From: Acidimicrobiia bacterium
Lineage (GTDB): Bacteria > Actinomycetota > Acidimicrobiia > Spongiisociales > UBA11373
Assembly (NCBI GenBank): GCA_029263095.1
Contig: JAJCYA010000002.1
Coordinates: 32,511-96,510 of the forward strand
DNA: 64,000 nucleotides
Reading direction: 5' to 3'
Below the pieces are notes generated by a model, which made no database searches, was not told the origin of the DNA, and saw only the letters and a list, made by a program, of their open reading frames with translations. The position numbers were made by a program, and so were the translations under genes. Shown here one piece after another: positions 8,364-44,123 of the stretch; position 1 is the first letter of the stretch; each line of letters opens with the position of its first letter.

Positions 8364-10037
8364 CTAGTACCCGGCGCCGATCTCACTCAATACGAGTCGT
8401 GCCATCTCAGCATGCCCCAATTCGTTGGGATGAAGAGTCCCCGAGGTGAGAAACCGCGGCGTTGGTCCCTGCAACGCAGCGCTCTGACTGGCTGTCCTGT
8501 ACCAAGAGACTGCTCCATCATTTTGCAGGACGGGAGCACCGTGGCGTCCCGGGGGGCGATACCAGCCGTCCGTGTAGTCGATGCGGCGCCGGGAGAGGAG
8601 AGGAGAATCCTCGAAGTCACCGGGATACCCGTAGTCCGGCCAGGGAGCGCAATACCCGTGACCCCGAGTAAAGCCGGCGGCCACGCGCCCCACCCAGGTC
8701 CACCCGTGAGCGTCGGCCGCAGCCTGCAGCGAGAGATTGAGTGGCTCCAGAAGACGCTGAACGGCAGCCGTCTGCTCCCGATCGTCGACCTCGTGAAATC
8801 CGAATGGCGGCGTCACATCACCGACGATCTCGTCACACTGTCCGCCGTCGGGGCTCCCGCCCGTCGGATTGGGGTACTCGACAAGGACGACACGATCGAT
8901 CGTGAAGGACTCGAGTCGGTCCGCCAGTCGTCCAAAGGCCCGGTCGAGCCCCTCGAGACCGGGCAGGACGCTCCGCGTGCCTCCCACCGATCTGCACCCG
9001 ATGTCGAACGGTGCGTCGTATGTGACGCTTACTCCCCTGTCCCACACACCGTCTTCGGCCGACGACCACAGATTGTCGATCAATACCTCGTAACAGAAAG
9101 GGTTGAACAGCGGGTCGGCTTCGACCAGGGCCCGGATGATCCTCGAGAAGCCGACGTCGTTCCCTCCAACCTGTATCAAAAGGATGTCGATCCGCCGATC
9201 CCCGACTATGCGTTCGACATCGTCCAACTGAGCGGGGATCGCCGGATCGGAACGCGGCCGGAGCAGGCCGCTGTCGATCCGGGCACCCGACGCAGCGAGA
9301 TCCACGAAGGTCACAGATGTCCGGTGCTCCCCATCTTCGAGCGCCAATGCCACCTGCGCCGGCCACCCGACGGATGAGCGGTGGGCGAGCGCATGACTTT
9401 CCACGGCTGCGGGATCGGCCGCGTCCGCCCAGGAAGTCACACCGTCGACCATCGGTATGTCAGGGCTTCCCTCGCCGCTGGGGTAGGAATCGCCGATGGC
9501 CACGACCAGGATGTCATCCACGACCATTGACCCCCGGCTGTGGAGTGTGATGCTCCCCCACGGCAATCGCACACGAACCCGGAGGTCGACGTCGTGCTCC
9601 CCTTCGGGAAGCAGCAGCTTGAGATCGGGCCTGGGCCGATGGTATGTGCCGGACCCGGCAGGACCGGAAATGCGCCACTCGTAGGTCACGAAACCTGCCT
9701 CGGGCAATCCGATGTCTGCCGGAGTCGGCGTCGCCACCAGTCGGACCGGTAGCCGGATGGCGGGGCATTGCCTGGGACAGCTATCGGGGACCCTGTTGTG
9801 GGTGTACTCCGGGGAGTTCTCGATCTCGACCAGCCCGTCTCCATCGGCATCGAGCCCAAAGCGCGGCTCCATCGACCAGTCGAATGAGGCTCTCGTCGGC
9901 GTCTCCTGGGCGATCGACACCGTAGGCAACACTTCGAGCAGACCGGTGATGACAATGGCGACTGTCAGCGCGGCGAACCACCACCCCTCTCGTGGCGGAG
10001 GCACGAACGAGGTCGCTGGGGATGACTCCGATCTCAT
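8364..10037 (-). CDS. Membrane-anchored SGNH/GDSL-family hydrolase (557 aa)
   Basis: Block I VAIGDSYPSGEG, block III LIQVGGND and a C-terminal DxxH-type histidine (LHPNELGH). The ATG overlaps the histidine-kinase stop (ATGA). Confidence 0.75.
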   Translation of the reverse strand: MRSESSPATSFVPPPREGWWFAALTVAIVITGLLEVLPTVSIAQETPTRASFDWSMEPRFGLDADGDGLVEIENSPEYTHNRVPDSCPRQCPAIRLPVRLVATPTPADIGLPEAGFVTYEWRISGPAGSGTYHRPRPDLKLLLPEGEHDVDLRVRVRLPWGSITLHSRGSMVVDDILVVAIGDSYPSGEGSPDIPMVDGVTSWADAADPAAVESHALAHRSSVGWPAQVALALEDGEHRTSVTFVDLAASGARIDSGLLRPRSDPAIPAQLDDVERIVGDRRIDILLIQVGGNDVGFSRIIRALVEADPLFNPFCYEVLIDNLWSSAEDGVWDRGVSVTYDAPFDIGCRSVGGTRSVLPGLEGLDRAFGRLADRLESFTIDRVVLVEYPNPTGGSPDGGQCDEIVGDVTPPFGFHEVDDREQTAAVQRLLEPLNLSLQAAADAHGWTWVGRVAAGFTRGHGYCAPWPDYGYPGDFEDSPLLSRRRIDYTDGWYRPPGRHGAPVLQNDGAVSWYRTASQSAALQGPTPRFLTSGTLHPNELGHAEMARLVLSEIGAGY

Positions 10038-11421
10038 TCCTCTGAGATTGGCAGGGTGAACCCGACTATGGCGCCACCCTCATCGGCATTTCGGGCGAAG
10101 ACCTCGCCGCCATGATCCTTGGTCACGGCGGCCACGATGGAGAGACCGAGACCCGATCCGGGTCGAGATCGGGCTTGTGGGGACCGGTAGAACCGCTCGA
10201 AGACATGGTCGATGTCCGCCTCAGGTATTCCGGGGCCATGATCTCTGACGGAGAATTCGTGGCCGCGGAGTCGGATCTCGATCTGCTCGCCCTCGCTCCC
10301 CCACTTTGACGCGTTTTCGAGGAGGTTGGAAACGGATCTCAGGAGTCTGTCTGGTGCACCGTTGATGATGGTTCTCTCCAGGTCGACTGCAACCTCGAGT
10401 CCGCTGCGTCGCTTGAGTCGCTCGATCGCCTGTTCCACTACCGCACTCAGGTCGAGCTCGACCTGAGTCTCCTCGTCACGACCGATGGTGGCGAGATCGA
10501 CGAGTTCACTCACAAGGTGCGACAGCTCGCCCACCTCCGAGGTGAGGTCGGCCAGTAACTCTTCGCGCTCGTCACCCTCTACTGCTCCCAAGGCCAGCAA
10601 CTCGATATTGGTGCGAACACTGGTGAGAGGCGTCCGCAACTCGTGCGAGGCGTCTGTCACCAAGCGCTGCTGACTGGTCCGTGCTTCTTCGAGTGCTGCA
10701 AGCATCCCATTGAATGCATCGCCCAATCGACCGAGCTCGTCACCCCGATCGACCTCGATTCGCGCACCGAGTTCGTGCGTCTCCGCGACGTGTTCCGCGG
10801 CGTCTGTCAACAAGCCGACCGGCCGCAAGCTGCGACCCGCGATCAACCAGGCAATCATCGCCGCGATTGCGACACCACCGATTCCGAGCAAGCTCAGTCG
10901 GAGCCGGAGTCCGGACAGGATTTCGTCGGTCGCGGTGACATCGCGCCCAACCTGGATCGCAACGCCTGGACCGACTGGCCGAGTCAGCATCCGATAGTGA
11001 ACACCGGCGACATCGGCATCCCGAAGGTAGTCGACACCCCCTTCGGCGGCGATCACCAGGTCGCGTTCGTCGACGGGGAGAACGACCGCAGATAGACCTA
11101 TCGTCACGATCGTCCCGCTCGACTCTACGAATTGAGCGATTGCGTCCTCGCGGATTACTTCACCGAAAGGTGTCAGCGATGAGCCGGAGACAGGACCTTG
11201 GTTGCCCCCCAGAACCTGCCCTCGGCCTGGTCTGTTGCGAAACTCATCAAACTCGAGAGCACTAATGAGGCCAACCGTGGGACCCCGCTCCCGAAGGAAA
11301 TCATCGACCTCGCCGCGCGCCTCGTCGCTTGCAAACCCGTATGAGAACAGAGCGACAACGGTCACCGCCATGCCGACTGCTACGACGATGAAGGCTGCGA
11401 GCCTGGCGCGCAGATTCATTG
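10034..11421 (-). CDS. Sensor histidine kinase of an MprB/OmpR-partner type two-component system
   Basis: TM, then HAMP, then the H-box [11 protein letters not shown], an N-box and G-boxes (GSGLGLSIV). The start at [10 protein letters not shown] overlaps the response-regulator stop (ATGA). Confidence 0.88.
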
Positions 11422-12096
11422 CCGACGCGCTACGTACCCGACGCCGCGAACGGTGTGGATCAGTCGTGGCTCGCCTTCCCCTTCCGTCTTTCGCCGCAGA
11501 TACCCGACGTAGACGTCGAGAGAGTTCGACGACGTGGCGAAATCGAACCCCCAAATGCGGTCATAGATCGTGTCGCGCGACAGCACGATGCCGGAATTCA
11601 TGAGGAGCAACTCGAGAAGATCAAACTCTGTCTTGGTCAGATCCACGGGTCGTTCGCCCCTGGCGACGGTCCGCGCCGCCGGGTCGAGTGTGAGATCTGC
11701 CAGGCGAAGCAGACCGGAATCCGGCGGGACCTCGCGGCGTCGCAGGAGCGCACGCACACGTGCCAGCAGCTCCTCGAGGGCAAACGGCTTTGTGAGGTAG
11801 TCGTCGGCGCCCGCGTCGAGTCCTGCGACCCGATCCGCCAGTTCATGCTTGGCTGTGAGCATCAGGATCGGCGTGGCGTCGCCGGCAGCACGCATCTTCC
11901 GGCACACGGCCATGCCGTCGAGTACCGGCATCATGATGTCGAGGACAATCGCATCCGGCGGCTCCTTGGCCGCTTCCACCAGTGCGCGCTCGCCGTTCTC
12001 GGCCGTGACGACGTCGTAGCCCTCGAACTTGAGGGCGCGTTCAACCGACCGTCGCACCGCGTCGTCGTCTTCGGCGATCAGCACTCTGTGTGTCAC
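11416..12096 (-). CDS. OmpR/PhoB-family response regulator
   Basis: [22 protein letters not shown]...DIMMP (receiver domain) plus a winged-helix C-terminus ending ...[11 protein letters not shown]. Confidence 0.9.
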
Positions 12097-12234: not shown

Positions 12235-12705
12235 ATGAGCCTCTACTCCAGGTTCCTTCGAGCGGTCGGCGGACAGAACTGGTTCGCAGCCGTTGCTGCT
12301 CGGACGGTCCCTCGGCTCGACCGCGTCGTCTACCGACTTACCCGAGGCCGCAGGCTGGCGACTCCCCCTTCGGTTCCCACATTCTTTCTCACAACAACCG
12401 GCCGACGCTCCGGGGAGTCCCGGACCGTTGCGGTTTCCTATGTCGAAGACGGCGGCGACTTCGTCGTCGTCGGCTCCAACTGGGGCAAGGCGACAACCCC
12501 CGAGTGGGCATTGAATCTTGCTGCCAACCCTCGAGCATCCGTTGAGATCGGTGGGGAGGAGACCTCCGTCGAGGCGCTGTTGGTGCCGGTCGGCGAGCGA
12601 GACGCCTTGTGGGAGGCGTTCGGATCCATGTGGCCCGCATACGCGGTGTACCGGCGGCGAGCGAAGGACCGGGTCGTACAGATGTTCCGGCTGGTATCGA
12701 CCTGA
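12235..12705 (+). CDS. Deazaflavin (F420)-dependent nitroreductase-family protein, a PNPOx-like split barrel
   Basis: A 156-aa protein with [38 protein letters not shown], characteristic of the DDN/Rv3547 family. Confidence 0.75.
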
Positions 12706-12779
12706 AATACCCCCCGACGCGGCATCGCGACGAGCTTGGTTGATCTTCAGTCGCTGGGACCGGCGGAATAGGCGGCGGG

Positions 12780-13477
12780 TGGGATTGATTGATACGTCTG
12801 TGTCCAGCGATCTCGAGTTTGTCTACGTCGGCGACCCCATGTGCTCCTGGTGCTGGGGTTTTGCACCAGTTCTGGATCGCATGCAGGCCGTCTACGACAT
12901 CCCGATCCGAGTCGTCGTCGGCGGGTTGCGTCCCGGGCCCGACGCAGATGTCCTCGACGATCGACTCGAATCCTTCCTGGCCCATCACTGGCACCAGGTC
13001 GAAGAAGCGTCGGACCAGCCGTTCGACGACGAGTTTCTGAAGCGGCGTGATGGGTGGCGTTACGACACCGAAATGCCGGCCATCGCCGTCGTAACCATGC
13101 GCTCCCTGGATGAGAAGGCCGTGCTTCCATTTCACAGTCGGTTGCAGCGTGCGTTCTACGCCGAAGGGATCGACATCACCGATCCGGACAACTATCCGGC
13201 ACTCCTCGAGGACTATACGGTGGACCACGAGGAATTCATGTCGCGGCTTCAGACAAGCGAGATGCGCGAACTGGCATGGGCCGACTTTGCCGAAGCGCGT
13301 TCGTTGGGCGTTGCCGGCTTCCCTTCTCTCCTCGTGTTCGACGGCGAACAGTACGGCGTGGTGACGAGAGGATTCCAACCTGCGGAGAGCTTGCTTCCAG
13401 CCCTCTCCGATTGGCTGCTGAACCGATACACCGACACCGGTGAGGGTTTGTTCTGCGAGCCGGGTGTCACCTGCTGA
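12780..13477 (+). CDS. DsbA/FrnE-like thioredoxin-fold protein
   Basis: [17 protein letters not shown] carries the CxxC motif typical of DsbA-like/2-hydroxychromene-2-carboxylate isomerase family proteins. The start codon is uncertain, with GTG at 12780 or TTG nearby. Confidence 0.65.
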
Positions 13478-13520: not shown

Positions 13521-14351
13521 TCAGTTGGAGCCGAGGAAGTCGAGCAGAAGCGCCGTCAGTTCATCGCCGTGCGTTCCAAAAAGGTCGGTCGCGTGAGCGG
13601 CGCCGGAGTAGATCATGATCTCCTTGGGCTCCGGCGACGCATCGAACACCGCCTGGATCATCCCCGGGATGGGTCCATCGCCATCGGCGGCGATGAAGAG
13701 CTTCGGCTCTGCGACCTGGGGAGCCAGCGCCACGGCATCTACCCCATCGACATCTGAAGGCCCTGCAAGGTTTACGACACCCGCCAGGTCGTTGGCGGCA
13801 CCGACCGCCATCGCTCCCACGCCGTTGACGGACGCCCCGAAGAAGAAGACGCGCGGGGCGCCTTCTCGGCGAATGAAGTCGACCGCGGCCTGGGCATCAA
13901 CGTCCACCTTGAATGGAATCTGATCGCCCTCCGATCCGCCATGCCCCCGCATGTTGTAGGCCAAGGCGGTGAAACCCTCAGCGGCGAGCACCTCGGCGAA
14001 TGGGAACCAGGTCTCCATTTCCGCCAGTCCCATCGCCCCGAGCACGATGGCGTCGCCGCCTGCTCCAAAGACCGTCCCTTCCAGAGTCAGGCCGTCACTC
14101 GTCGCAAAGGTGACACGCTGCGGACCGGGGACTGTTCCAGATGTTGTTGCCGGCGCCTCAGTGGTGGTGCCCTCATCCGCCGCCGTCGAGGCCGTCGAGG
14201 CCGTCGAAGCCGTGGAAGCCGTGGAAGCCGTAGTGGTCTGCACTGCGGTGTCGCCGGTGCTCGCGACGGTGGGAGCCGACTCATCGGTGCCGCCTCCGCA
14301 GCCGGCGACCACAAGGGCGAACGCAGCGACGATTAGAGATCGGCGGATCAT
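13521..14351 (-). CDS. Secreted lipoprotein alpha/beta hydrolase, dienelactone-hydrolase-like
   Basis: MIRRSLIVAAFALVVAGCGGG (lipobox), then a (STA)n repeat, then AYNMRGHGGSEG...FFFGASVNG...AAHATD. The ORF-track N-terminal extension (His/Asp-rich) is unlikely to be translated. Confidence 0.7.
   Translation of the reverse strand: MIRRSLIVAAFALVVAGCGGGTDESAPTVASTGDTAVQTTTASTASTASTASTASTAADEGTTTEAPATTSGTVPGPQRVTFATSDGLTLEGTVFGAGGDAIVLGAMGLAEMETWFPFAEVLAAEGFTALAYNMRGHGGSEGDQIPFKVDVDAQAAVDFIRREGAPRVFFFGASVNGVGAMAVGAANDLAGVVNLAGPSDVDGVDAVALAPQVAEPKLFIAADGDGPIPGMIQAVFDASPEPKEIMIYSGAAHATDLFGTHGDELTALLLDFLGSN
14181..14234. repeat. 9-bp tandem repeat (x6) encoding (STA)n in the lipoprotein hydrolase linker
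   Basis: GCCGTCGAG/GCCGTGGAA units. Confidence 0.7.
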
Positions 14352-14530
14352 CTCGATTCTCCTGTGTGGTCGGCGCATCGGGCATCCTAGACGCCACGCC
14401 TGGGGCGGCATCCCAGACAGAACGCCGGTCGTCCGCTGGGGGCAGAGGCCGCTAGGGAGGACGAGTCGATCCGCGTTTCGAACCCAGGCACTCTCGGTAC
14501 CGGTCCGACGCCCGCCTCGCGGCCGTGTTC

Positions 14531-15352
14531 TCAGGGGCTCGTCGTTCCGCCGGTGGCGTTCGTAGTCGTCGTCGTTCGTTGGGTGACGGTCGTGGTAGTA
14601 GTCGAGGTGGATGTGGTCGTGGATGTGGTCGCCCTCGAAGTGGTCGTCGTCGGTATCGGCCTCGTCGTAGTCGTCGTCGTAGTTGTGGGCCGGACTGTGG
14701 TCGACGGGCAGGTACATGGGGTGTCCGGATCGCGTGGATCTCGAAGCGGGTTTCCGCAGTAACACCGAACGCGGGGCCGATCCTCATCGTCGACCATGAC
14801 GGCGGTACCGGCAGGCAGGATAGTTTGGCGTTCGGTAACGGCACCGTTGCTAAAGCCGTGGTTGGTCACCCGGGTGTCTGTCAGGAGGATCGTCGGCGTG
14901 AGGCCCCGGACGAAGTCCGGGATCTGATCGACTGGAATCCCTTGCACGCCAGCCCACGCCGCGGCCTTGTCGGGTTCACTCATGAGGTAGGCAATGAGCA
15001 ATTCGGGCACACAAGTCTCCGCCAGGCTTCCCCCGTACAGCCCTACTTCGCTCGGAAGGGGTGGATTCACCGAGGTGGTGGTCGTCGTCCCCGTCAGAAA
15101 GACCCGATCAGCGAGCGCCATGAAGGCATCGGGGCCCTCGTCATTGGGTCGTTCGTAGAGCACCGCGTAGCCGGTCGAGTTGTCGGCGATGTCGCCACCA
15201 TCTCGGATCAGCAGCAACGCAACTACGCCAACCAAAAGCGCCCCGATAGCGAACGCCATACCGGCAATCACCCAAGCCGGTACGCCCAATGGCCCCGGCT
15301 GTTGTCGCGGTGGCGTGGGGGGAGGAAGATCTCGGTCGAAGGTCTCGCTCAT
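14531..15352 (-). CDS. Hypothetical membrane-anchored protein with a poly-Thr C-terminal tail
   Basis: MSETFDRDLPPPTPPRQQPG, then a TM, then a globular region (VRCYCGNPL), then TTTTTTTTRPIPTTTTSRATTSTTTSTSTTTTT. Confidence 0.5.
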   Translation of the reverse strand: MSETFDRDLPPPTPPRQQPGPLGVPAWVIAGMAFAIGALLVGVVALLLIRDGGDIADNSTGYAVLYERPNDEGPDAFMALADRVFLTGTTTTTSVNPPLPSEVGLYGGSLAETCVPELLIAYLMSEPDKAAAWAGVQGIPVDQIPDFVRGLTPTILLTDTRVTNHGFSNGAVTERQTILPAGTAVMVDDEDRPRVRCYCGNPLRDPRDPDTPCTCPSTTVRPTTTTTTTTRPIPTTTTSRATTSTTTSTSTTTTTVTQRTTTTTNATGGTTSP

Positions 15353-15493
15353 CACCTTCCCTTCAGTCCCCGCAACGATACATAACCGGCGTTGTGAATG
15401 ACGGCCGGACGACAGTTGGCGCCCCAAGCTGTTGCAGCACCGCGATCCAGCAGGAATCGGCTCCGCTGGAACCTCGATTGAGTCGCCGGGTGA

Positions 15494-17320
15494 CTACACG
15501 AACCGCCAGGCCGCATTGGAGCCAACCCAGTTGCCGCTCCCCCGCTCCTGGAAGGCGCGGATGGCGTAGGTGCCGGTGTCGGACCACACCCAAGAGAAGA
15601 CCAACGAGGCACTCCCGGTGGCATCGGTGATCGTCTGGATCGGATCAGGATGAAGCGGATCCGATTGCTCAGCTTTCTCTACCTTCGACTGCGCCTTGCT
15701 GACTTCCACGACCACGGGCGCCCCGGGGTCGAAGCCCGCCAAGGTCACGCGAATCTTCGATGGGTCCCCGACGGCATCGTCCACCACCATTGCCGGAGCC
15801 TCAAGCCACCGCACCACTTCCCGATAGAAGGCGGGGTTCTCCCAGAACTGGGTGTGGCTCTTCCAACGCTTGTAGCCCGTCTCCGGCTGGTCTTCGATGT
15901 GGAAGTAGTCCAGCCGGTGGCCAAGGAAGTCGGACCATGACCACATGTTGACCCAGTGGAACCGGGCCGGCTTCTCCGGTTGATACGGCGAGAACTTGTA
16001 GGGACCGTAGGGGCGACCCGAGCGGCGTCGCCGGAAACTGGTGTGGGAGCTCAGGATCTGGGCCCGTACCCTGCGTTCTCGCTTGACGGTCTGGTGGAAG
16101 AAGTAGACGGCCTTGTCGAGCGGCGATCCAAAAGACATGAGGCCCCGCAATCGTTGGAAGGCCGCCTCTCTGGAATCCGCAGGAATGGCGGGGAGTACCG
16201 AGGGGCCCGATCTGCGGTACGCCCGGTGTTCGGATGCGATCTGGTTGATGGCGTCGTAGGCAATGACGCTACCGAGGGAATGGGCAGCCACGTAGACATC
16301 GTCGTACTGCTCGTCGCGCAGGAGTTCGGCAAGTCGCTCGGAGTTGATCCGCAAGATCTCCTGCCGCACGGTGTGGTAAGCGGACAGCTGATCGGCGCCG
16401 TCGAAGTAGATGGCCACGTCTCCAAACCAGCCGACCAAGAAGGTGGAGGCCTTCCAGGCTGCGCCTACACCCGCCGCGATCCCGAGCAGCGTAAGGAAGT
16501 CACCCCAGTCCGAGACGTCGGTGATGGCCCCGAGGGTCCGCCTGAGGGAATCGATCTTGGCGATGATCACGATCACCGGAATCACGAGTGCCCCGGTGAT
16601 GATCGACAGAATCATCCACGCTCTGAGCCGCCGCCACCTCTCCTCGAATGGAACCTTCTTCAGAGCGAGCCTCTTCTCGTACGACACCAGTCTCCCGATC
16701 CCCCATGCTCCCCAAAGTGACGCCACGAGAACCAGGCCGACCGCCATCAGGAGCATCAGCTCGACGATCGTTGCGACCCCCGGTTTGACGACAAGAAGGT
16801 TCTGCTTGATCGCCGCCCACAGATCTCCGATCTGTCCCGGGAGCCAGCTACCGAGAGCCAGCAGAGCGAGTCCGAAGAGAGGCAGCAGTGCAGCCAGCAG
16901 GATCTCGCGCAAGAAGAATCCGACCCGCCCAAGACGGCTCTGATCCGGGTTAGAGGTGAGAAGAGCGGCGTGCTGCGCCCATGCCCTCACCGGCACCATC
17001 GACGTCTTGGCCAACCACTTCAGCGTCTCTTGGAGCCTGATCCACCCTTTTGGCTTGTCGGCCCAATAGACCTCGTGCACATCGATGTTGCTGATCTTGT
17101 TTGGCCCCTGAGAGTCTTTCAGGGCGATGCCGACGTGGCTTCGCACAGTGGAGCCGACACCCGCGAGCTCATTGACGACGTGGTGTGTCAGAGAGACGTT
17201 GTGGGGAGACGTCCCGTATTGAGTCGCCAGATTACGGACGAAGTCGTCGGTGATCTGGTAGCTCCGCTGCTCTCCCATACCGTGGATGAGGAGCAGTGCG
17301 ACGTTGCGGCGAGTTGCCAT
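15494..17320 (-). CDS. Alpha/beta-hydrolase-fold protein split by an internal polytopic membrane insertion (608 aa)
   Basis: N-terminal LLIHGMGEQ (oxyanion/HG region), then roughly four hydrophobic helices between residues 130 and 300, then a nucleophile elbow AAHSLGS and a C-terminal soluble region. Confidence 0.6.
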   Translation of the reverse strand: MATRRNVALLLIHGMGEQRSYQITDDFVRNLATQYGTSPHNVSLTHHVVNELAGVGSTVRSHVGIALKDSQGPNKISNIDVHEVYWADKPKGWIRLQETLKWLAKTSMVPVRAWAQHAALLTSNPDQSRLGRVGFFLREILLAALLPLFGLALLALGSWLPGQIGDLWAAIKQNLLVVKPGVATIVELMLLMAVGLVLVASLWGAWGIGRLVSYEKRLALKKVPFEERWRRLRAWMILSIITGALVIPVIVIIAKIDSLRRTLGAITDVSDWGDFLTLLGIAAGVGAAWKASTFLVGWFGDVAIYFDGADQLSAYHTVRQEILRINSERLAELLRDEQYDDVYVAAHSLGSVIAYDAINQIASEHRAYRRSGPSVLPAIPADSREAAFQRLRGLMSFGSPLDKAVYFFHQTVKRERRVRAQILSSHTSFRRRRSGRPYGPYKFSPYQPEKPARFHWVNMWSWSDFLGHRLDYFHIEDQPETGYKRWKSHTQFWENPAFYREVVRWLEAPAMVVDDAVGDPSKIRVTLAGFDPGAPVVVEVSKAQSKVEKAEQSDPLHPDPIQTITDATGSASLVFSWVWSDTGTYAIRAFQERGSGNWVGSNAAWRFV

Positions 17321-17456
17321 GCCTCCCCCGGCTCGGTCGCCAGCCAGGCTACACCGCCGACCCTACGCCGGCTCAGGAGCACGGGAGGCTGGAGTGGTTT
17401 AGACGGCGTTAGCGCGTCTCTCGATAGGTTGGCGCCCGAGGAGTCGAAGGAGCCCA

Positions 17457-17711
17457 GTGGTCCTCGCAGCTGCAATTGCCGTCGCCATCGTGACACTCGC
17501 GGTTGGTTTCCTGGTGATCAGGATCTGGAGTCGGGGTGGACCCGCCCCGCCCCCGGAGCAGGGGGCCGATCCGCTGCTGGCGGCTGGACTGATCAACATC
17601 GCGGTCGGTTCGGCCTTGGTTGCGACCTTGGGTGTGCTCATGCTCATTCAGGTCGTCGTTGGGCTCGCCCTGGCGACGGTCGGGGGTCGTCGCACGCGCC
17701 GTTCGTCTTGA
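17457..17711 (+). CDS. Possible small two-TM membrane protein (84 aa, GTG start)
   Basis: VLAAAIAVAIVTLAVGFLVIRIW...LVATLGVLMLIQVVVGLALATVGGRRTRRSS. This rests on hydrophobicity only. Confidence 0.3.
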   Translation: MVLAAAIAVAIVTLAVGFLVIRIWSRGGPAPPPEQGADPLLAAGLINIAVGSALVATLGVLMLIQVVVGLALATVGGRRTRRSS

Positions 17712-17797: not shown

Positions 17798-19630
17798 CTA
17801 CGGGCACCCGGTCGGCGGGTCTAGGGGTGTTGTGAACGCGAACTCGGGGAACCCCTCGGTAGGGATGGGAAGCCGGCGTCCCTCTGCCACAACGACGCCG
17901 CCTCCGGCACGGTTGAACTGCACGTCGGCTGTGCGGTTTTCGGCGTCGAGCGTGATCGTGAGCTTGTAGGGCATCTCCATCGGGAGATATGTCCCGGCTG
18001 TTCCGATGGTTCCGGTGCTGACGAGGTCGGTCTCGCCAACTGCATCGTCCATCTGAAGGTCGAACGTCGCGGACATGCTGATCTCAGCACCCCCAGGAGT
18101 CCCATCAAAGGTGAATTCTCCGGTCCACGAGGTGCCGTCACACGATCGAGCGTTGACGGTGGCGGTCTGCCCGGACTGAGAACGCGACCAATCGAAGGCG
18201 TATCCCGTTCCGATGGTGACACTCGTGTCTCGCCTGACGTTGTAGCCGAATCGTGATGCTTCGAAGGTGAGCGTCTCGGTACCGGGATCCCCCGATGTGT
18301 AGGTGCTCGTCCAACGGCCGTCGGTACCAGTGGGACCCAGCTTCGGGGCAACGGATCCAAGCTTGGCACCCTCCACGGTCACGATGGCGCTCACAACCGG
18401 ACGGTCATTCCAGTCCAGCACGGTCGCATTGAAGGAGAGTGTGTCTCCATCGGCCTCGAGCGCTCCGGATGTTGGATCCACGGTCAGCTTGAGACAAAAC
18501 TCATCCGCCCCTGGGATGGACGGCGAGATGGGACTCTTCATCGACTCGGCGATCAACTCGGTGTCGTCGGCGACCTTCTCGGGATCACTGAACTCGTCGA
18601 GAGCCTCCTGAAACCCGTCGTCGGACCAGGTCACGTCCTTGTCCACAGAGACCGTCATCTCGCCATTCTCCGTCTCAAACGTGTGCGTGTACCGATCGCC
18701 ATCTTCGCTCGCGTAGTCGGTTTCCGTGCCGGGCATATCAGAGCCGCTCTTGGTGTACCCAATCGTGTAGTCGCCGACTGTGACCGAGACGCTGACTGTG
18801 ATGGAGCCGTCGGCGTCGCGCCGCACCGTGGTCTTCCGAGACTGCTCCGACGTCTCCACGCCCTTCGGGCCGTCGGTCGTCACTCCAGTAGCAGTAGCGA
18901 CTCCGCCTTCGCGGGCTCCATCCTCGCCCCAGCACACGTCGTGATAGGCCTCGCCTTCGGTGTGAGCGGTGACTCGCTCCCCGGTCTCGGAGTCCGTGAT
19001 GTCGCCATCGACCGACCAGGTGGTCGTCTCCCGACCGGAGCTCTCGTCGAACGTCCTGTCTGCCTCCATGCCAACGGTTCCACTCTTGGTCCCTTCGGCG
19101 ACTGTTCTTGTCTCGCTGACCGGGTCGAGCAGGAGTCCGTAAGCGGCCGCAGCGTCAGGCCGATGCCTGGTGGAGGCGCGTGGTGACAACGGTCCCGATC
19201 CTGCGGCAGAGGCGGCGGCAGCGCGCAGATCGGTCGCCAAGGCCCGAAGAGCCTCTCTTTCCAAGCGAGAGCCGATCTGTGTCGGGTTGCTCGTCGCCAG
19301 AATGCCCGACCAATCGAGCTGGGACAGTGCGCCTACGACATCGGTCGCAGTGGCCGGTGAGGGGGTCCGGGCGGTGCCCTCAATCAGAACCTCGGCGGCG
19401 ATAGCAGCGAAGATGTCGACTGCATCGCCTGACTCGACGCGCTCGGCCGCGCTACGCAGCCCAGATGCGGTCGTCGCAGGGATATCGACCGGCGGATCGG
19501 AACCGTCCGGAGACCCTGAGGACTCCGGTGTGCCAGCCGAGCACGCTGCCGTCAGCAACACCAGCGCGAGCAGCGAGGTCCACCACCCGCCTTCCACGTT
19601 CACCGACGTCACAGCACCCATGCGCCGCAT
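17798..19630 (-). CDS. Large secreted lipoprotein of unknown function, Thr/Gly/Asp-rich
   Basis: MRRMGAVTSVNVEGGWWTSLLALVLLTAACS (lipobox). The ORF could start 15 codons upstream (19675). There are no recognisable catalytic motifs. Confidence 0.55.
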   Translation of the reverse strand: MRRMGAVTSVNVEGGWWTSLLALVLLTAACSAGTPESSGSPDGSDPPVDIPATTASGLRSAAERVESGDAVDIFAAIAAEVLIEGTARTPSPATATDVVGALSQLDWSGILATSNPTQIGSRLEREALRALATDLRAAAASAAGSGPLSPRASTRHRPDAAAAYGLLLDPVSETRTVAEGTKSGTVGMEADRTFDESSGRETTTWSVDGDITDSETGERVTAHTEGEAYHDVCWGEDGAREGGVATATGVTTDGPKGVETSEQSRKTTVRRDADGSITVSVSVTVGDYTIGYTKSGSDMPGTETDYASEDGDRYTHTFETENGEMTVSVDKDVTWSDDGFQEALDEFSDPEKVADDTELIAESMKSPISPSIPGADEFCLKLTVDPTSGALEADGDTLSFNATVLDWNDRPVVSAIVTVEGAKLGSVAPKLGPTGTDGRWTSTYTSGDPGTETLTFEASRFGYNVRRDTSVTIGTGYAFDWSRSQSGQTATVNARSCDGTSWTGEFTFDGTPGGAEISMSATFDLQMDDAVGETDLVSTGTIGTAGTYLPMEMPYKLTITLDAENRTADVQFNRAGGGVVVAEGRRLPIPTEGFPEFAFTTPLDPPTGCP

Positions 19631-19726
19631 GGTAGAGATCGCCTTGCGAGCGAGTCCGGTGCCGATGGTGGTCAATTGATCGGCTACGTGTGACGATACC
19701 CAGTAGGACCGGCTCTGGGAGGCCTG

Positions 19727-44000: not shown

Positions 44001-44085
<85 letters not shown>

Positions 44086-44123
44086 ACGTGGGTCCGGGAT
44101 TATACGCCCGTGACGCGGATGCT

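Follow-up and report, generated by a model that had tools for sequence, protein, structure and literature searches.

Can a bundle of membrane-spanning helices sit inside the catalytic domain of an otherwise soluble enzyme fold, or does such an arrangement betray two genes joined by accident? The question is raised by a gene on the minus strand, at positions 15494-17320, of a stretch of 64,000 nucleotides from an Acidimicrobiia bacterium (GenBank assembly GCA_029263095.1, contig JAJCYA010000002.1, positions 32,511 to 96,510), the whole of which is hereafter called the window. An earlier note, made from the sequence alone, had read the product of 608 amino acids (aa) as an alpha/beta hydrolase split by a four-helix membrane insertion, and had proposed a lipase or acyltransferase acting on envelope lipids. 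The computational analysis reported here indicates that a bundle of transmembrane (TM) helices very probably does lie within a single alpha/beta-hydrolase domain, and favours, with a probability of roughly 0.6, a reading in which the protein is one polytopic, cytoplasm-facing membrane serine lipase or transacylase acting on the inner leaflet.

That the split is an artefact, with two genes joined by a frameshift or by misassembly, has a probability so small as to be practically negligible. The 608-codon frame is uninterrupted from its ATG, and an identical protein (P0001) is encoded by the NCBI genome (GC content ~63%) and by an independent Logan assembly of SRR15505517, which excludes misassembly; the motifs follow one another in the same order in thousands of homologues. 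A frameshifted fusion, which the earlier note had named as one outcome that would undo its reading, was rejected on these grounds. With the identical protein found twice, 19 close homologues and 3,582 clusters of wider family members, the split hydrolase is a feature far beyond chance.

The close homologues (30-65% identity, E 4e-261 to 5e-46) come from a word-indexed search, which also returned 7 distant ones; none has a name beyond 'hypothetical protein' or a precomputed Pfam domain. The wider family comes from an exhaustive profile search clustered at 50% identity, in which 3,582 clusters reach E<=1e-3 and 728 of them also E<=1e-30. In the distant homologues the motif order is kept (HGMGQQ, YEAYWAP, many hydrophobic helices, GDVAIY, GHSLGSVIAYD, FGSPLDK, W.N...DP.SG and AH..YW), and across 148 diverse full-length members 13 positions are invariant: H13, G14, G16, W86, Y305, H347, S348, L349, G350, P400, L401, D464 and H489. 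Ser348, Asp464 and His489 make up the predicted catalytic triad, with an HG motif predicted to form the oxyanion hole. As the N-terminal segment is constrained in the same way as the C-terminal catalytic residues across these members, a fusion of two unrelated genes is ruled out. Judged from the aligned sequences, the split layout is the rule in a family that extends through Acidimicrobiia, Acidobacteriota, Gemmatimonadota, cyanobacteria, Bacteroidota and other phyla, the closest named relatives being Acidimicrobiia metagenome-assembled genomes (MAGs). The architecture had been called uncommon; it is rare among described alpha/beta hydrolases but normal inside this large family.

Both motifs from which the split was first read, LLIHGMGEQ with its HG oxyanion region and the nucleophile elbow AAHSLGS, are present. 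The gap between them is 326 aa, not the ~170 aa first given, a figure that fits instead the hydrophobic module lying in that gap (171 aa). The features of the gene and its product, all on the minus strand, are as follows.

15494..17320 (-): complete open reading frame (ORF), 608 aa plus stop, with an ATG start
17322..17329 (-): Shine-Dalgarno-like GGGGGAGG, 1 base 5' of the ATG
16937..17320 (-): N-terminal part of the alpha/beta-hydrolase domain, aa 1-128 (AlphaFold secondary structure by DSSP; conservation)
17267..17293 (-): LLIHGMGEQ, aa 10-18, with H13-G14 as putative oxyanion-hole motif; G16 also invariant (conservation)
17057..17077 (-): HEVYWAD, aa 82-88, the core strand that precedes the insertion, last of the N-terminal part; W86 invariant, E83 conserved to 90% or more
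16424..16936 (-): hydrophobic insertion module, aa 129-299 (hydropathy; AlphaFold)
16844..16924 (-): TM helix 1, aa 133-159 (hydropathy; AlphaFold)
16694..16777 (-): TM helix 2, aa 182-209 (hydropathy; AlphaFold)
16628..16693 (-): Lys/Arg-rich TM2-TM3 loop, aa 210-231, predicted cytoplasmic; 8 Lys/Arg versus 3 Asp/Glu in 22 aa
16553..16627 (-): TM helix 3, aa 232-256; W235 (86% conserved) at its predicted cytoplasmic end
16424..16495 (-): TM helix 4, aa 276-299, weakly hydrophobic, continuous with GDVAIY (hydropathy; AlphaFold)
16406..16423 (-): GDVAIY, aa 300-305, a signature of the family at the junction of insertion and catalytic domain; Y305 invariant, D301 96% conserved
15791..16423 (-): C-terminal part of the alpha/beta-hydrolase domain, aa 300-510 (AlphaFold; conservation; profile match)
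16268..16288 (-): nucleophile elbow AAHSLGS, aa 345-351; Ser348 codon at 16277-16279
16112..16132 (-): FGSPLDK, aa 397-403, behind the next strand, with P400 and L401 invariant; counterpart of FGSPLG in the Nir2 DDHD domain
15929..15931 (-): Asp464, invariant; putative acid of the triad
15854..15856 (-): His489, invariant, in SHTQFW; putative base of the triad
15497..15787 (-): lineage-specific C-terminal immunoglobulin-like (Ig-like) beta-sandwich, aa 512-608 (AlphaFold; Foldseek; alignments)

An AlphaFold model of the window protein, built with 20 homologues (predicted local distance difference test, pLDDT, 72; predicted template-modelling score, pTM, 0.76), has the strand-helix order typical of an alpha/beta hydrolase. 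A first strand (5-13) runs into the invariant H13-G14, followed by a helix (22-35), a hairpin (42-67, comprising strands 42-49 and 60-67) and a further strand (76-84), after which the insertion begins. Behind the insertion come a helix (316-335), a strand (341-347) running into Ser348, a helix (349-371), and a strand (391-397) followed by FGSPLDK; towards the C-terminal end, a strand (455-460) precedes Asp464, and His489 precedes the final helix. The elbow, AHSLGS at aa 346-351, has the small-x-Ser-x-small pattern behind a core strand, the three triad residues follow one another in the sequence in the canonical order of nucleophile, acid and histidine, and in the predicted structures both halves contribute to a single, mostly parallel sheet. 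On this model the protein would be a minimal alpha/beta hydrolase with its insertion placed behind the last N-terminal core strand; lids and insertions in the superfamily commonly follow strands beta-4 or beta-6 (PMC11878206).

Members of the family in which the insertion is short offer a second view of the same fold. These natural homologues of ~375-400 aa have their two halves joined by ~100 aa of amphipathic or hydrophobic helix with no clear TM segment. One of them, P0121 (395 aa), was modelled since Foldseek searches with the full window model lose signal to the TM bundle and the Ig-like tail; its model (pLDDT 88.8, pTM 0.90) is a single compact domain in which a helical hairpin (135-162 and 164-196) takes the place of the insertion. 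Against the Protein Data Bank (PDB) it gave 29 Foldseek matches at E<=1e-3, all of them alpha/beta hydrolases and no other fold, including esterases, monoglyceride lipase, lipases, epoxide hydrolases and the plant phospholipase A1 (PLA1) AtDSEL, which has one of the lower root-mean-square deviations among these matches (6.4 A). The alignment to 3fle_A covers 413 columns (TM-score 0.53 normalised to the target), which is longer than the query and therefore spans most of P0121, both halves included. For the full window model, the only PDB match below 1e-3 is Archaeoglobus fulgidus lipase (AFL; 2zyh, E 1.4e-4), the remaining matches being Ig-like domains over the tail (aa 512-607). AFL, in which a beta domain likewise follows the alpha/beta-hydrolase domain at the C-terminal end, is thus the best fold match in the PDB, yet at 9% identity and a TM-score of 0.15-0.20, and unlike the window protein it is soluble and without a TM insertion. 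With H13, G14, G16 and W86 as invariant as S348, D464 and H489, and the short homologues compact, the proposal that the N- and C-terminal parts belong to one fold, for which the earlier note had suggested an AlphaFold model as one check, has held.

The insertion itself is not uniform. On the Kyte-Doolittle scale hydropathy peaks strongly in three places, within aa 133-162, 174-212 and 232-260 (maxima 2.4-2.8), and a fourth helix at ~aa 276-299 is weaker; AlphaFold models four long helices here (129-159, 182-218, 223-254 and 276-307), so that of the four helices originally proposed three are strong and the last is weaker. Among the 148 members, insertion lengths cluster near 100, 200 and 275 aa, classes that correspond to a non-TM hairpin, to four TM helices and to six, respectively. 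A crude count of hydrophobic helices finds 4 in 81 members, 0-1 in 34 and 6 in 13, and the odd counts, which are rare, are attributed to weak helices. An even number of helices places both halves of the split fold on the same side of the membrane.

Which side this is can be judged from the distribution of charge. The density of lysine plus arginine in the loops is 0.161 on the catalytic side versus 0.088 on the other, and of the 96 members with an even helix count 87 have the higher density on the catalytic side; no signal peptide was found in the window protein, and the short members lack both a signal peptide and TM helices. Because of this bias, read by the positive-inside rule, and the missing signal peptide, the catalytic domain is likely to face the cytoplasm. 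The insertion is also less conserved than the halves that it separates, with a mean top-residue frequency of 0.30 versus 0.42 and 0.49, and its only standout conserved residues are E139 (69% conserved, in TM helix 1, where P147 is invariant among close homologues) and W235, both at predicted cytoplasmic helix ends. This pattern suggests an anchoring, lid or gating element rather than a second active site. Since the last helix runs straight into the near-invariant GDVAIY, the bundle would be rigidly coupled to the catalytic domain.

What kind of hydrolase this might be was approached through a family-level Pfam scan of 90 members, with matches counted at E<=1. Lipase_3 is the most frequent match (64 members, best E 1.7e-6), and is followed by Abhydrolase_6 (40, best E 2.5e-4), Hydrolase_4 (35, 1.7e-4), Thioesterase (33, 5.5e-4), LIDHydrolase (32, 3.7e-5), DUF676 (28, 8.2e-4), PGAP1 (27, 6.1e-5), DUF900 (23, 1.6e-4), LCAT (19, 6.8e-4) and DDHD (10, 1.4e-3, by way of a DP(V/I) acid motif). 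Two short homologues lie above the Lipase_3 gathering cut-off of 22 bits (P0121 at 27.8 bits, P0110 at 23.0 bits), and the window protein has no match to Lipase_3 (PF01764) at E<=10. Searches with the window protein as a single sequence against Pfam, NCBIfam, PADLOC and the PDB gave nothing above threshold, with sub-threshold Pfam matches to Hydrolase_4 and to DUF900 (PF05990; 15.4 bits against a cut-off of 20.5, over aa 330-366 only). The PGAP1-like (PF07819, cut-off 24.3 bits) and DUF676 (PF05057, 20.3 bits) families, which the earlier note had put forward, could not be upheld: the window protein matches neither, and ten members scanned singly all fell below the cut-offs. Five further family members had no match in NCBIfam, and a consensus from which the insertion had been deleted had no PDB sequence match and sub-threshold Pfam matches only.

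Profiles searched against PDB sequences reach further. Their best matches are plant DAD1-like PLA1 enzymes (E 1.5e-3 to 8e-3), in an alignment that begins at '(A)IY..D..S....R' and continues through the elbow, with GDVAIY aligned to 'SIY..DE.S' of the plant enzymes; other class-3 lipases and PAD4 also appear, as does the DDHD domain of Nir2 (9c37, E 0.013) in two collinear stretches, one from the elbow region to FGSPLG and one with H..YWE at the position of the catalytic His. Class-3 lipases and plant PLA1 (PDB 2yij, 7x0c, 7x0d) share with the family a Ser-Asp-His alpha/beta hydrolase with a GHSLG-type elbow, and ~50 residues upstream of the nucleophile align as well ('IY..D..S....R..vl.e......V.v.GHSLG'), whereas the HGxGEQ, YYWA, GDVAIY and FGSPLDK motifs are specific to the present family. 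The lid of fungal class-3 lipases likewise lies upstream of the nucleophile. DAGL-alpha/beta and Atg15 carry their TM helices at the N-terminus, and we know of no described class-3 lipase with TM helices inside its catalytic domain. An observation in its own right is that the Acidimicrobiia MAG with homologue P0017 also encodes a separate canonical Lipase_3 protein ~5.7 kilobases (kb) downstream (L082 13711-13938).

The DDHD family (DDHD1, DDHD2, SEC23IP and the pseudo-enzyme Nir2), whose domain has an alpha/beta-hydrolase-like fold (PMC12582312), has, in the DDHD domain of Nir2, motifs collinear with those of the present family (...FDAL, FGSPLG, H..YWE). DDHD proteins are also cytosolic enzymes that act on membranes or lipid droplets, and in DDHD2 a membrane-binding helix lies inside the catalytic domain (PMC12663969). 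They bind membranes peripherally, however, whereas the window protein spans the membrane; the present family has no WWE or SAM domains, and the best score against the DDHD/intracellular PLA1 model (PF02862) is ~15 bits over 19-20 residues, against a cut-off of 28.3. The Abhydrolase_9 'transmembrane lipases' (PF10081, with the N-terminal TM domain PF15420) are also bacterial alpha/beta hydrolases with a multi-helix TM domain (PMC11878206), but there the bundle precedes an uninterrupted hydrolase domain, whereas here it is inserted inside it, and the window protein matches neither model. One of the 90 members matched Abhydrolase_9_N (PF15420) at E 4.5e-5, a hint that some insertions may be related to that TM domain. 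Taken at the level of sequence, the family appears to sit at the edge of the class-3 lipase group, with a possible link to the DDHD lipases.

Neither Pfam-A nor NCBIfam contains the family, a superfamily-wide classification of 2024 (PMC11878206) lacks it as well, and the literature on the GHSLGS motif and on TM helices inserted into lipases yielded no description of it. It is a large and uncatalogued family, in which a TM bundle within the catalytic domain is unlike the Abhydrolase_9, DAGL or PGAP1-type arrangements.

How such a protein would work can be sketched from these parts. A lipase-type alpha/beta hydrolase with Ser348-Asp464-His489 as its triad and H13-G14 as its oxyanion motif would carry a four-TM bundle (aa 129-299) between the HEVYWAD strand and the helix leading to the nucleophile strand, a region upstream of the nucleophile in which lipases often have lid elements. 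The bundle, rejoining at GDVAIY, would hold the entrance of the active site at the surface of the inner leaflet, where acyl esters of membrane glycerolipids could enter laterally, and the outcome would be either hydrolysis (as a phospholipase A or lysophospholipase) or acyl transfer to another lipid. A precedent is offered by DDHD2, which relies on Ser351, Asp541 and His681 and on a membrane-binding helix within its catalytic domain; when that helix is lost the enzyme no longer binds membranes and transacylation all but disappears, and embedding of the active site in the lipid phase turns the enzyme from hydrolysis to transacylation (PMC12663969). The earlier proposal of a lipase or acyltransferase fits the nearest relatives, namely Lipase_3, plant PLA1 and, more faintly, DDHD; the predicted target has shifted, from envelope lipids at large to the inner leaflet rather than the outer layers of the envelope. 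That the substrate is a lipid at all we consider reasonably probable.

It is worth noting that several observations weigh against this reading of the protein. The crude predictor gives 3 helices in the window protein, in which TM4 is weakly hydrophobic and contains a Lys; the score of 3 arises because TM4 is weak, and a 65%-identical relative scores 4. All matches to characterised lipases are marginal (E ~1e-3 to 1e-6) and have the nucleophile elbow at their centre, an Ig-like tail is unusual for a cytoplasmic enzyme, and clustering of the ORFs of 82 loci revealed no conserved neighbours across lineages, with synteny restricted to the Nostocales; three further contigs from close relatives likewise showed none. 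All sources label the members of the family hypothetical, and their enzymatic function is one that we infer.

With the architecture retained, the enzyme might act mainly as a transacylase or acyltransferase between membrane lipids, because its active site would be permanently sunk into the membrane surface, away from water. The behaviour of DDHD2, the weak LCAT matches in 19 of the 90 members and an insertion that is permanent rather than a mobile lid all lend this some weight; nothing in the sequence separates a hydrolase from a transferase, and the short homologues, without true TM helices, resemble ordinary interfacial lipases, which leaves a chiefly transferring enzyme a tentative alternative. 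A membrane-anchored serine hydrolase with a non-lipid substrate, such as a peptidase, thioesterase or protein deacylase, would also be at home in a fold so generic, and could draw on the weak family matches to Hydrolase_4 (S33 aminopeptidase) and Thioesterase and on the esterases and epoxide hydrolases among the Foldseek matches. We regard it as unlikely, given that the most frequent and strongest family matches are to lipases (Lipase_3, LIDHydrolase, PGAP1, DUF676, LCAT and plant PLA1) and that an active site at the membrane surface best suits lipid substrates.

The remaining alternatives concern where the enzyme acts and to what end. A catalytic domain turned outwards, to act on outer-leaflet or cell-wall-linked lipids or lipoproteins, would suit the C-terminal Ig-like beta-sandwich, a domain type common outside cells, and the secreted or lipoprotein-like products of adjacent genes. 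It would also require a 128-aa N-terminal half-domain with 13 Lys/Arg to cross the membrane in a protein that lacks a signal peptide and has a core strand at its very start; the TM2-TM3 loop, rich in Lys/Arg, is on the catalytic side, as is the same bias across the family, and the short members, lacking signal peptide and TM helices, have a domain that would fold in the cytoplasm. An outward orientation is, on balance, distinctly improbable. More improbable still is a conditionally activated, membrane-disrupting phospholipase serving as a toxin or anti-phage abortive-infection effector. Membrane-targeted lipase effectors do occur in defence systems, and the gene stands alone; searches of PADLOC-DB for known anti-phage defence and of phage collections gave no match, however, the plasmid collections gave four remote matches only (three annotated 'hypothetical protein', one without an annotated feature), no conserved sensor or immunity partner accompanies the gene, and the family occurs in many phyla in ordinary chromosomal settings. 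It appears to be a stand-alone, housekeeping-type gene rather than part of a defence system or mobile element. The inner-leaflet lipase or transacylase therefore remains the reading that we prefer.

A bolder extension of that reading would make the family a prokaryotic sister group of the eukaryotic DDHD/intracellular PLA1 enzymes, with the membrane-binding element inside the catalytic domain enlarged hairpin by hairpin, from an amphipathic hairpin to 4 and then 6 TM helices, and with the permanently embedded active site serving as that of an ATP-independent transacylase that remodels acyl chains in the inner leaflet; we hold this to be doubtful.

The tail and the surroundings of the gene add further detail. 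The Ig-like beta-sandwich is found in 4 of 20 close homologues and has 8% occupancy across the family, and is an optional, lineage-specific accessory. Beta domains behind the catalytic domain of AFL and of pancreatic-type lipases aid substrate or surface binding, and it may be speculated that the tail plays a similar part here.

A divergent ORF of 84 aa with two hydrophobic helices lies just upstream of the split-hydrolase gene (17457-17711, plus strand) and is called as a gene in the Logan assembly (L001 3028-3282); a 90-aa opposite-strand gene is also found just upstream on the contig of the 65%-identical homologue P0002. Further upstream is a gene for a protein of 625 aa, secreted or lipoprotein-like, whose only match is a weak one to the Ig-like Big_1 (17798-19675, minus strand). 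Directly downstream of the split-hydrolase gene is that of a DUF6777 membrane protein with a Thr-rich tail (14531-15427, minus strand), and beyond it lie genes for a lipoprotein-like Hydrolase_4 alpha/beta hydrolase with a (TAS)n linker (13521-14765, minus strand), a DSBA-like protein (12518-13477, plus strand), a histidine kinase and response regulator pair (10034-12096, minus strand) and a GDSL-type lipase (8364-10037, minus strand). Three predicted lipolytic genes, the split hydrolase included, thus fall within ~9 kb, in an arrangement that is not conserved in other lineages. The sole RNA gene found by Rfam and ARAGORN in the window is a transfer RNA for leucine (tRNA-Leu, GAG; 44001-44087, minus strand). 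In heterocystous cyanobacteria (Nostocales, loci L032-L079) the short non-TM form is followed in 23 loci, at ~100-500 base pairs, by a conserved and very acidic protein of ~350 aa, a synteny restricted to that order.

Alpha/beta hydrolases are among the best-catalogued of enzyme folds, yet a family of at least 3,500 clusters at 50% identity is missing from the catalogues. It is unusual for a membrane enzyme to be built by inserting a TM bundle into a soluble catalytic domain, and this raises a question of folding, as two half-domains must assemble after four helices have entered the membrane. The graded insertion sizes within one family provide a route to study how interfacial lids evolve into membrane anchors and, were the sister-group relationship to DDHD enzymes true, would amount to a natural series of a lipase lid becoming a transmembrane domain. 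DDHD1 and DDHD2 are spastic-paraplegia genes, and if the DDHD link is true, bacteria would offer simple models for enzymes of human neurodegeneration. Phospholipases and transacylases of the bacterial inner leaflet are a poorly known group, and this family is a candidate for a role in the remodelling of membrane lipids.

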